From the NCBI GenBank assembly GCA_031385155.1, contig JANNBF010000085.1, positions 25,949 through 89,948 on the forward strand: a stretch of 64,000 nucleotides of DNA, in the 5' to 3' direction. This stretch comes from Rhizobacter sp. (GTDB lineage: Bacteria > Pseudomonadota > Gammaproteobacteria > Burkholderiales > Burkholderiaceae_C). Position numbers and translations under genes: made by a program. The notes beneath the pieces were generated by a model. The model did no database searches. It was not told the DNA's origin and was given only the letters and a program-made list of their open reading frames with translations. Below, piece by piece: positions 35,052-36,951 of this stretch (position 1 is its first letter; the number at the start of each line of letters is the position of its first letter).

Positions 35052-35456
35052 GTGTTTTTCTCCGGTCGGCCACCCTGGTGGCAAGCTCTGCGCAAGACAG
35101 GGCAGGTGGTTTGTATTGCCAGTGCGCTGCTGGTCACGGGTGCAGTTCAGGCCAAGGGCCCGGTTCCTGGCACGGTGGCGCTCGGTGATTTGCCCGCCGA
35201 GGCCCAGGCGACGCACAAGTTGGTCATCGCCGGCGGCCCGTTCCCCTACCCCAAGGATGGCTCGACGTTCGGCAACCGCGAACGCGTTTTGCCCAAGCGT
35301 GCGCGCGGGTTCTACCGGGAGTACACCGTTGCGACGCCCGGCCTGCGCAACCGGGGTGCAAAACGAATCGTCTGCGGTGGCGAACAAGCCCGGCTGCCGG
35401 AGGCTTGTTACTACACCGGGGATCACTACATGACGTTTCGTCAGATTGCGCCATGA
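35052..35456 (+). CDS. guanyl-specific ribonuclease (RNase Sa/barnase, N1/T1 family), probable export signal
   Basis: GGPFPYPKDGSTFGNRE, YREYTV, RGAKRIV, YYTGDHY; hydrophobic N-terminal segment. Confidence 0.92.
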   Translation: MFFSGRPPWWQALRKTGQVVCIASALLVTGAVQAKGPVPGTVALGDLPAEAQATHKLVIAGGPFPYPKDGSTFGNRERVLPKRARGFYREYTVATPGLRNRGAKRIVCGGEQARLPEACYYTGDHYMTFRQIAP

Positions 35457-35541: not shown

Positions 35542-35943
35542 GTGACCATGCTGTTGCAGACAGTCCGTCCAAACATTGTTCAATCGATCCGCGCCTTTCG
35601 CGTGGAGGACCTGATGCTCGCGGCGCAAAGCGCGAGCCAGCATTTCCTCTACGTGAACTTGACGGCGGCCCAGTCCAAACAAGACGTTCTCGACGCCATT
35701 GCGCAGGCCTTCATGTTCCCTGCGCACTTCGGCAAGAACCTCGATGCGCTGTTCGACTGCATGACCGACCTCGTCCACAAGGCCGGTCAGCAGCCCGGCT
35801 TCGTGGTCGTGCTCGAGCAGTTGCCCGACAACCCGCGTTTCGACCGCGAGGCACGCGAGCAGTTGCTCGATGTGTTCCGAGACGCCGCCGACTTCTGGGG
35901 GGAACGAAAGATACCCTTCAGGTGCTTCTCTTCTTTTCAGTAG
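35542..35943 (+). CDS. barstar family ribonuclease inhibitor
   Basis: FPAHFGKNLDALFDCMTD barstar motif; GAGGAGG RBS; directly downstream of the RNase. Confidence 0.92.
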   Translation: MTMLLQTVRPNIVQSIRAFRVEDLMLAAQSASQHFLYVNLTAAQSKQDVLDAIAQAFMFPAHFGKNLDALFDCMTDLVHKAGQQPGFVVVLEQLPDNPRFDREAREQLLDVFRDAADFWGERKIPFRCFSSFQ

Positions 35944-36113
35944 CCCGCTCCCAAGAATCAGGGTCATGGGAGCGGGCTACGGATGGGGCCCCCAGCGTTG
36001 CAGACAAGCCGGCGAAGTCGGCACCGAAGACTGCCGCCAACAACACCTTCGGCATGAACATGCCGTTGATGAGCAGCGCGTTCGATACTGCCATGTGGCT
36101 GAACGCCGCCTGA
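35926..36113 (+). other. candidate programmed -1 frameshift cassette and 58-aa barstar C-terminal extension ending WLNAA
   Basis: TTC TCT TCT TTT CAG TAG, then a 14-bp perfect stem (35940-35953 / 35967-35980). The -1 frame is open to TGA 36113 with coding-like codons and no obvious RBS. Confidence 0.55.
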
Positions 36114-36133
36114 CCGGTTGACGACGCCCGCCG

Positions 36134-36178
36134 AGCGCCCGTGCGCGGGGCCTGAAAGGCCCGGCGCACGGGCGCTTT
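36134..36178. terminator. GC-rich hairpin between the convergent barstar region and rsmA
   Basis: AGCGCCCGTGCGC...GCGCACGGGCGCT 13-bp stem with an inner GGCC/TGAAA/GGCC, followed by TT. Confidence 0.6.
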
Positions 36179-36951
36179 CACGTCTGCGGCTTGATGGCAG
36201 CTGCGAGCGCCAGGTACTCGTGAACCGGCACTTCCTCGGCGCGGCGCTGAACATCGAAGGCGCCGGCATGGCGGCGCTCGTCGAGCCAGCGGCCGAGCGT
36301 GTGGCGCAACAGCTTGCGCCGCTGTGAGAACGCGACGCGCACGAGTTCTTCCAACAGCAGCGGGTCGACGGCCGGCACACCGGCCTGCGGCAACGGGAGC
36401 ATCCGCACCACGGCCGAGTCGACCCGCGGCGGCGGCTCGAACGCTTCGGGCGGCACGTCGATGATGGCCTCGATGTCATAGCGCCACTGCAGCATCACGC
36501 TCAGGCGCCCATAGGCCTTGCTGCCGGGCGCGGCGGCCATGCGTTCGACCACTTCCTTTTGCAGCATGAAGTGCTGGTCGGCCACATGCGCAACCGCGCC
36601 GAGCAGGTGGAACAGGATCGGCGTCGAGATGTTGTACGGCAGGTTGCCCACCACGCGCAGCCGTTGGCCTTGCTGAGCCGCGAGCGCGCCGAAGTCGACA
36701 TTGAGCACATCGGCCTCGATCACGCTCAGCGCCGGGCGCTGACGCAGGCGCTGCGCCAAATCTCGATCCAGCTCGATCACCGTGAGCTGCTCGCAGCGCG
36801 CGACCAGCGGGTCGGTCATCGCGCCCAGGCCGGGGCCGATCTCGACGAGGGCTTCACCGGGCTTCGGGTCGATGGCGTCGATGATTGCGTCGATCACCGA
36901 GCCATCGGTCAGGAAGTGCTGCCCGAAACGTTTGCGGGCTTGGTGTTTCAC
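36178..36951 (-). CDS. rsmA: 16S rRNA m6,2A1518/1519 dimethyltransferase
   Basis: [52 protein letters not shown]. Confidence 0.97.

Follow-up and report, generated by a model that had tools for sequence, protein, structure and literature searches.

A candidate programmed −1 frameshift would append a conserved C-terminal tail to barstar in Rhizobacter and related bacteria

To our knowledge, programmed −1 frameshifting is known in very few non-mobile bacterial genes (dnaX, cdd, copA, csoS2). In the chromosomal dnaX gene of Escherichia coli, ribosomes slip on the canonical heptamer A_AAA_AAG, which is accompanied by an upstream Shine-Dalgarno (SD) sequence and by a stable stem-loop located about 5–6 nt after the slippery site. 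The shift occurs at a frequency of about 50% and yields two products with a common N-terminus, tau and gamma, the shifted one being the shorter. The cellular genes copA of E. coli and csoS2 of carboxysomes also use −1 slippage, giving two isoforms that differ at the C-terminus, and in both genes the shift truncates the protein. In Bacillus subtilis cdd, the −1 shift site is CGA_AAG, and in IS911 the initiation codon of the downstream frame (orfB) adjoins the shift site. The transposase genes of IS3/IS911-type mobile elements use Z_ZZN tetramers, U_UU.U among them, followed by a 3′ hairpin or pseudoknot (Sharma et al., 2014, PMC4066793). With a 3′ stimulator in place, U_UU.U ranked third in efficiency among the −1 tetramers in E. 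coli. Even with a strong pseudoknot, the tetramers that worked in this host gave just 0.26–5.6% frameshifting (PMC4066793).

The locus analyzed here lies in a stretch of 64,000 nt from Rhizobacter sp., called the window below, to which all positions refer. A secreted guanyl-specific RNase of the barnase/RNase Sa type, with a signal-like N-terminal segment (35052–35456, plus strand; PF00545, E = 3.5e-22), is the first gene of an RNase/barstar pair, and the barstar start is found 86 nt downstream. The barstar zero-frame ORF (35542–35943, plus strand; PF01337, E = 1.8e-29) encodes 133 aa and ends at TAG 35941–35943; its Pfam match reached 102 bits against a cut-off of 23.4 and its neighbor is the PF00545 RNase, as expected for a barstar. 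Translation of this ORF is preceded by a strong SD sequence, GAGGAGG, just upstream of the start, with a duplex energy of −11.8 kcal/mol. The rsmA/ksgA gene (36178–36951, minus strand) is convergent with barstar and flanks the tail region described below. This locus was compared with 24 loci of the same genus, 80 named loci and a family-wide set of about 50; among the named ones are Rhizobacter, Piscinibacter sakaiensis 201-F6, Roseateles toxinivorans DSM 16998, Ideonella, Aquincola, Methylibium and Caldimonas. The place of barstar in the genome, between maeB/RNase and rsmA, is conserved, and the RNase lies upstream of barstar in the relatives too, with 50–93% identity. Within the genus, the RNase is far more divergent (50–93% identity) than the barstar inhibitor (88–98%).

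The −1 frame is already open before the barstar stop and continues for 58 codons from TCA 35937 to the stop TGA 36111–36113 (SVARSQESGSWERATDG...FGMNMPLMSSAFDTAMWLNAA; 35937–36113, plus strand), ending in ...MSSAFDTAMWLNAA. Joined to barstar residues 1–132, this extension would give a predicted protein of 190 aa. The open frame had been pointed out by the first-pass annotation of the window, and its conservation could be followed through the relatives. It was open in 24/24 same-genus loci and in all the other loci examined in which barstar and tail are split between two frames (about 150), and in every split locus it extends without interruption from 28 nt or more upstream of the barstar stop to the conserved end. 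The tails are 55–79 codons long and always in frame, all indels being multiples of three, including an insert of +63 nt in one locus (L025), and the tail stop codon varies among TGA, TAA and TAG. The third-position entropy of the tail was 0.74 vs. 0.24 in clade 1 and 1.01 vs. 0.16–0.34 in clade 2, that is, 3–6 times that of positions 1 and 2. Judged by these alignments, the −1 frame is a coding sequence under purifying selection at the protein level, and it is continuous with the putative shift site.

The end of the tail, FGMNMPLMSSAFDTAMWLNAA (36048–36110, plus strand), is nearly invariant. The terminal W-L-x-A-A, noticed earlier in the window alone, is also conserved among the relatives, with 148 of 150 tails ending in [MY]WL[NSTA]AA; clade 1 tails end in ...NxxFGMNMPMMSSAFDTAMWLNAA and those of clade 2 in ...GEKMPTDKLVDVSPLALRMSSPFNAGYWLAAA. 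No Pfam or NCBIfam family matched the tail, and no second copy of the motif was detected in the genome searched. Gene callers annotate an ORF of 62–70 aa as a hypothetical protein in about 800 clusters. At 36048–36062, the codons for F-G-M-N-M-P form a palindrome, GGCATGAACATGCC, conserved across clade 1 and possibly a by-product of the peptide sequence.

The prediction that barstar and tail make up one protein agrees with the relatives, in which at least 279 clusters of PF01337 proteins of 186–209 aa carry the same tail in frame. The consensus of these fused proteins is ...FRCFYSF-[A/S/C]VARSQ..W[ED]R..KPAPK..NPNFGMNMPMMSSAFDTAMWLNAA; some of them, in Rhodoferax and Aquincola, are annotated as barstar family protein. 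At the DNA level, fused genes were collected from 17 genomic loci. A −1 slip after Phe132 (TTT 35935–35937) predicts the sequence ...RCF(Y/S)SF-SVARSQESGSWERAT..., which matches the fused proteins residue for residue. These single-frame orthologues of the trans-frame product are colinear with it across the junction, and two of them, L116 and L157, read FYSF-SVAR, the exact junction predicted; L157 is a fused gene with a clade-2 tail (FRCFYSF-SVARAS...). A +2 shift was discarded, as a single residue (A/S/C) separates F from V in the fused homologues, matching the −1 reading. The tail-less barstars of two outgroup loci (L024 and L026) terminate where the zero-frame product does, with the C-terminus FRCF(Y)SF-x-stop. 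In the fold prediction for a fused homologue, a confident barstar domain was obtained and residues 135–189 had a pLDDT below 50. This predicted disorder suggests that the tail is a flexible linker followed by the conserved terminal motif. No recurrent fusion of the tail to any non-barstar protein was found, which, together with the disorder, fits a tethered motif that needs covalent linkage.

Several isolated tail fusions were set aside. Three of them (P0125, P0148 and P0150) lie on indel-rich long-read contigs, and P0134, with a phasin, and P0136, with a planctomycete-type N-terminus, come from single short or low-coverage contigs; all five have the appearance of errors or chimeras, and no protein covering both parts turned up in a search for full-length phasin-tail proteins. 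On one metagenome contig (L032:724-1125), a 95-residue phage-integrase Arm DNA-binding fragment is in frame with the barstar tail beside rsmA, and this fusion may represent an integration or deletion event at the locus, or a chimera. A third variant was observed in genus g91 (L144 and L145), where barstar ends in FRVFYSFL with TAA or TGA; this variant has the slip site together with a different hairpin, and its −1 frame encodes an unrelated tail of 39 residues (...VCTPWEGAWAQLVA), without a start codon 19 nt before the stop. One fused gene, L130 (from genome G071), reads ...FYSF-Q-Y-PAQEAG..., with TAC in the place of the TAG of the split genes and the frame restored further on, and it appears to have reverted from the split form along another route. 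A tree of the barstar domain (FastTree, 118 residues) required at least 8 changes between fused and split forms and at least 29 changes of an Arg codon discussed below; this tree was poorly resolved, so no direction of evolution was drawn from it.

The barstar gene of the window ends ...AGG TGC TTC TCT TCT TTT CAG TAG, with TTTT at 35934–35937. Two sites of slippage had been suggested by the first-pass annotation, this T_TTT tract and the CGA AAG at 35905–35910, 30 nt upstream of the stop. Both were followed in the split loci, 137 distinct sites of which were aligned without gaps (alignment A2, in which column n is window position 35907 + n). The first of these is the putative shift site T_TCT_TTT (35931–35937, plus strand; A-site tetramer T_TTT, 35934–35937), and T_TCT_TTT_C (35931–35938) was invariant in 137/137 sites. 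The slippery motif UC[U_UUU] is in register, with a U preceding the zero-frame codon UUU. Because UCU to UUC in the P site is non-canonical, the heptamer amounts in practice to a tetramer. CGA_AAG was not conserved (CGA, CGG, CGC or AGG at codon 122; AAG or AAA at codon 123) and was dropped; a shift there would meet −1-frame stops downstream in L064 and L094, and its product does not match the fused proteins.

A motif of 19 nt that includes the site, TATTCTTTTCNGTRRCCCG, was found exactly once in 300/400 sampled genomes of the family (155/201 genera) and never in the reversed control. The site of the window differs from this motif by TCT for TAT alone, with the heptamer intact. This TCT (Ser) for TAT (Tyr) at 35929–35931, barstar residue 130, was seen only in this genome among about 150 split sites; it is non-synonymous in the conserved FYSF motif of barstar and silent in the −1 frame (CTA>CTC, Leu). 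The last five sense codons and the stop had zero synonymous variation in 22 species of the same genus, against an average of 0.29 in the remainder of the gene. In the fused genes, the frozen positions are free (TAC 9, TAT 7; TCC, TCG and TCT; TTC 12, TTT 3). Between the site and the conserved stem lies a spacer of 5 nt, CAGTA (35938–35942, plus strand), whose position 35939, after UUUC, is variable: A, T, C or G, giving Gln, Leu, Pro or Arg in frame 0 and always Ser in frame −1.

The 5′ foot of a perfect 14-bp stem, GTAGCCCGCTCCCA / TGGGAGCGGGCTAC (stem-loop 35940–35980, plus strand), contains the barstar TAG, and no U tract follows the stem. The window stem is composed of a conserved 11-bp core (35943–35953 / 35967–35977), three pairs at its base and two pairs inside the loop. 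Conservation does not extend to the three lowest pairs, which places the start of the conserved structure 5 nt beyond the UUU codon, the usual spacing for a −1 stimulator. In the 137-site alignment, the core was paired in 98–100% of the sequences, and overall 89.8% of the cells were paired, vs. 33–41% in controls with the 3′ arm slid. Five pairs change on both sides, and clades 1 and 2 have different stem arms (CCCGCTCCCA vs. CCCGTTCTGC) in the same register. The 3′ structure with covarying pairs that had been anticipated from the window was hence observed across the split loci. The minimum free energy of the window stem was −31.5 kcal/mol and the mean of the split sites −27.9 kcal/mol, compared with −17.5 kcal/mol for the corresponding 48 nt of the fused genes; a region of 296 nt folded at −144.7 kcal/mol (z = −4.7 vs. 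shuffles). The variation and weaker folding of the fused genes suggest that the stem was shaped out of the A-R-S-Q...W-E-R-A codons specifically where the frame is broken.

A pseudoknot between the loop GGGTC (35961–35965) and GGCCC (35987–35991) (candidate helix 35961–35991, plus strand) had also been proposed, and it held in part. This helix is paired in most clade-1 sequences and in 74% over all, and in clade 2 an equivalent 4-bp helix in a shifted register is 95.6% paired, with exchanges at one pair (AU 15, GC 12) and at another (CG 32, UA 2). A pseudoknot at the shift site is possible on these data, which are suggestive only. Further downstream, between the tail stop and the convergent rsmA/ksgA stop, a strong hairpin of about 20 bp was detected (36134–36176), common to the convergent barstar-tail and rsmA transcripts and likely the end shared by both. 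The first-pass annotation had placed a terminator-like hairpin after the second stop; the hairpin is present, but it was not called by a strict consensus terminator scan. It is followed by just UUU on the plus strand and by no T run on the minus strand, and for this reason it does not count as a canonical intrinsic terminator in that scan. A sub-threshold Rfam match to the sbcD RNA motif (RF01757; 28.1 bits vs. a gathering score of 40) covers 36011–36178, spanning the tail coding region and the distal hairpin. No match to this motif was found at E ≤ 0.01 in 20 related loci, and the identity was rejected, the match being taken as due to chance or to the hairpin.

We consider it probable, from the sequence evidence, that a programmed −1 frameshift on the U_UUU tetramer, stimulated by the 3′ hairpin or pseudoknot, gives barstars of 133 and 190 aa from this gene. 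In the comparisons made here, the slip site, the spacer and the stem are conserved or covarying across most of the family. Most ribosomes would read ...UCU UUU CAG and stop at UAG, releasing the canonical 133-aa inhibitor. A fraction of them would pause with UCU in the P site and UUU in the A site; this pause is proposed to be caused by the 11-bp G+C-rich stem, possibly a pseudoknot, that starts 5 nt downstream. The paused ribosomes would slip back one base on U_UCU_UUU, where tRNA-Phe could re-pair on UUU one base back and tRNA-Ser would move from UCU to UUC. They would then continue in the −1 frame through the stem and the variable linker, and the outcome would be the 190-aa barstar with a disordered tail of 58 residues ending in ...SSAFDTAMWLNAA. 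The slip would probably take place at a frequency of a few percent, so the long form would be a minor product.

Two observations are not accommodated well by a frameshift: tetramer sites are weak in E. coli (0.26–5.6%), and the codon usage at barstar Arg127 (35920–35922) is left without explanation. This codon is AGG in 97, CGA in 18, CGG in 12 and AGA in 6 of the split genes, against CGC in 16/16 fused genes and in 70% of the other (control) Arg codons. The rare AGG of the window overlaps a GTG in the −1 frame (35922–35924, plus strand), 19 nt before the barstar stop, which is a candidate start for a 63-aa ORF. The codon at this −19 position is GTG or ATG in about 91% of the split genomes. 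Selection for a start codon would produce this pattern, and it would be expected after a gene fission in which no frameshift occurs and the tail is made solely as a 63-aa peptide (MLLFFSVARSQ...WLNAA), probably by ribosomes that, after termination at the barstar UAG, re-initiate 19 nt upstream at GTG 35922; the hairpin would then have a different role, for instance in obstructing forward movement or in mRNA protection. The ORF of 62–70 aa called in about 800 clusters agrees with such a peptide, and the dual coding of the overlap would account for most of the frozen synonymous sites as well as a frameshift does. However, the −19 codon is CTG in 13/146 genomes, including both sampled species of each of the genera g170, g72, g43 and g120, and GGT in genus g91, with the tails intact, and no SD sequence was found before it at the 153 sites examined, where the duplex energy averaged −0.25 kcal/mol. 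Moreover, the TAT of the motif is never TAC in 300 genomes, although TAC would merely turn Phe4 of the peptide into Leu, and residue 2 of the putative peptide alternates freely between Leu and Phe. A disordered linker with a terminal motif that is found on barstar only has no obvious use once detached, and the slip site, its spacing and the covarying stem would be left as a coincidence. Production of the tail by fission alone is accordingly regarded as rather unlikely. An independent start at this GTG had been named from the outset as the scenario that would speak against recoding; the enrichment of GTG/ATG is in line with it, but the CTG of the 13/146 split genomes and the missing SD sequence are not. 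On this analysis, the GTG or ATG may add some independent initiation to the frameshift, both routes coexisting, and the rare Arg codons AGG, AGA and CGA, prevalent at codon 127 in the broken-frame genes only, may serve to start translation, to pause the ribosome or, as AGGUG, to mimic an SD sequence. Internal Met codons (ATG 36054 onward) were rejected as the sole start, as the variable linker upstream of them is kept open and in frame in all genomes.

Other explanations do not require the ribosome to change frame. The same long protein would be obtained by transcriptional slippage, with the RNA polymerase adding a U in the T4 run, as one extra T in TTTT restores the frame in some mRNAs. The known bacterial cases of transcriptional slippage require at least about 7 consecutive A or T, though, and the run here has four T and an invariant length; a conserved 3′ RNA stem at ribosomal spacing would also be unnecessary, and such slippage seems very improbable. 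Even harder to credit is a decaying remnant, left when a deletion of one base broke an ancestral fused barstar, with the tail no longer made and the hairpin serving as the transcript end. The tail-less barstars of the outgroups L024 and L026, which end at the same residue, could be read in that way, and their existence implies that the short protein is sufficient as an inhibitor. But purifying selection acts on the tail, whose frame stays open in about 150 genomes from more than 100 genera and whose indels are in frame, the slip site is invariant, and no U tract follows the stem.

If the long barstar is produced by frameshifting, the tail most likely provides a C-terminal recognition motif, for example a protease degron, connected to barstar by a flexible linker, and FGMNMPLMSSAFDTAMWLNAA may be its functional end, as a degron or as a partner-binding motif. 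An ssrA-like degron is one candidate: 148 of 150 tails end in x-A-A and are predicted to be disordered, but position −3 is N, S, T or A and not L as in the tmRNA tag of this genome, ANDQTYALAA. A predicted complex of RNase and barstar with the 63-aa tail peptide scored 0.01 and counts as evidence neither for nor against. It can be speculated that the frameshift sets a fixed or regulated ratio of stable to degron-tagged barstar, and that the tagged form, alone or with a prematurely folded RNase, is handed to an AAA+ protease, but we regard this version as unlikely. If true, the cell would have a way of clearing the almost irreversible RNase-inhibitor complex or of tuning the free inhibitor, that is, a turnover switch for an immunity protein controlled by recoding. 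The lineages with fused genes would then have the ratio set to 100%, and the tail-less outgroups to 0%.

A literature search found no paper linking barstar with frameshifting or recoding. If confirmed, the frameshift in barstar would add a new case to the programmed frameshifts of ordinary bacterial genes, and the 19-nt core of the candidate is identical in roughly three quarters of the genomes sampled from a large family of betaproteobacteria. The carriers of the motif include the cultured Piscinibacter (Ideonella) sakaiensis 201-F6, Roseateles toxinivorans and Rhizobacter sp. Root1221. The locus is currently annotated as a barstar and a separate hypothetical protein. Fused, split and tail-less genes form a natural series for studying how a frameshift signal is shaped from coding sequence, and the conserved C-terminal motif on a textbook inhibitor hints at a further function.

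Among the described systems, dnaX resembles the barstar locus in being a chromosomal, non-mobile gene with a slippery site followed at a similar distance by a stable stem-loop, in giving two products with a common N-terminus and a zero-frame or −1-frame stop near the site, and in the absence of the shift from some relatives. It differs in its canonical heptamer, where barstar has U_UCU_UUU, effectively U_UUU, and in its shifted product, which would be longer in barstar; no conserved upstream SD sequence at a stimulatory spacing was found at the barstar site. The site itself is closest to the U_UU.U tetramers with a 3′ hairpin or pseudoknot of the IS3/IS911 type, and the GTG/ATG at −19 would parallel the start codon beside the shift site of IS911; those are, however, transposase genes of mobile elements, whereas barstar is a housekeeping-type inhibitor gene conserved in place. 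The CGA AAG of the window recalls B. subtilis cdd, but in barstar it is not conserved and is not the site used. In contrast to copA and csoS2, where the protein is truncated, the shift would extend barstar with a disordered tail. Finally, the tail shares with the tmRNA (ssrA) tag an Ala-Ala end after a hydrophobic or aromatic patch (AMWLNAA here, YWLAAA in clade 2), with no similarity found beyond the last residues; the barstar tail differs in lacking the L at position −3 and in being encoded by the gene instead of added by trans-translation.
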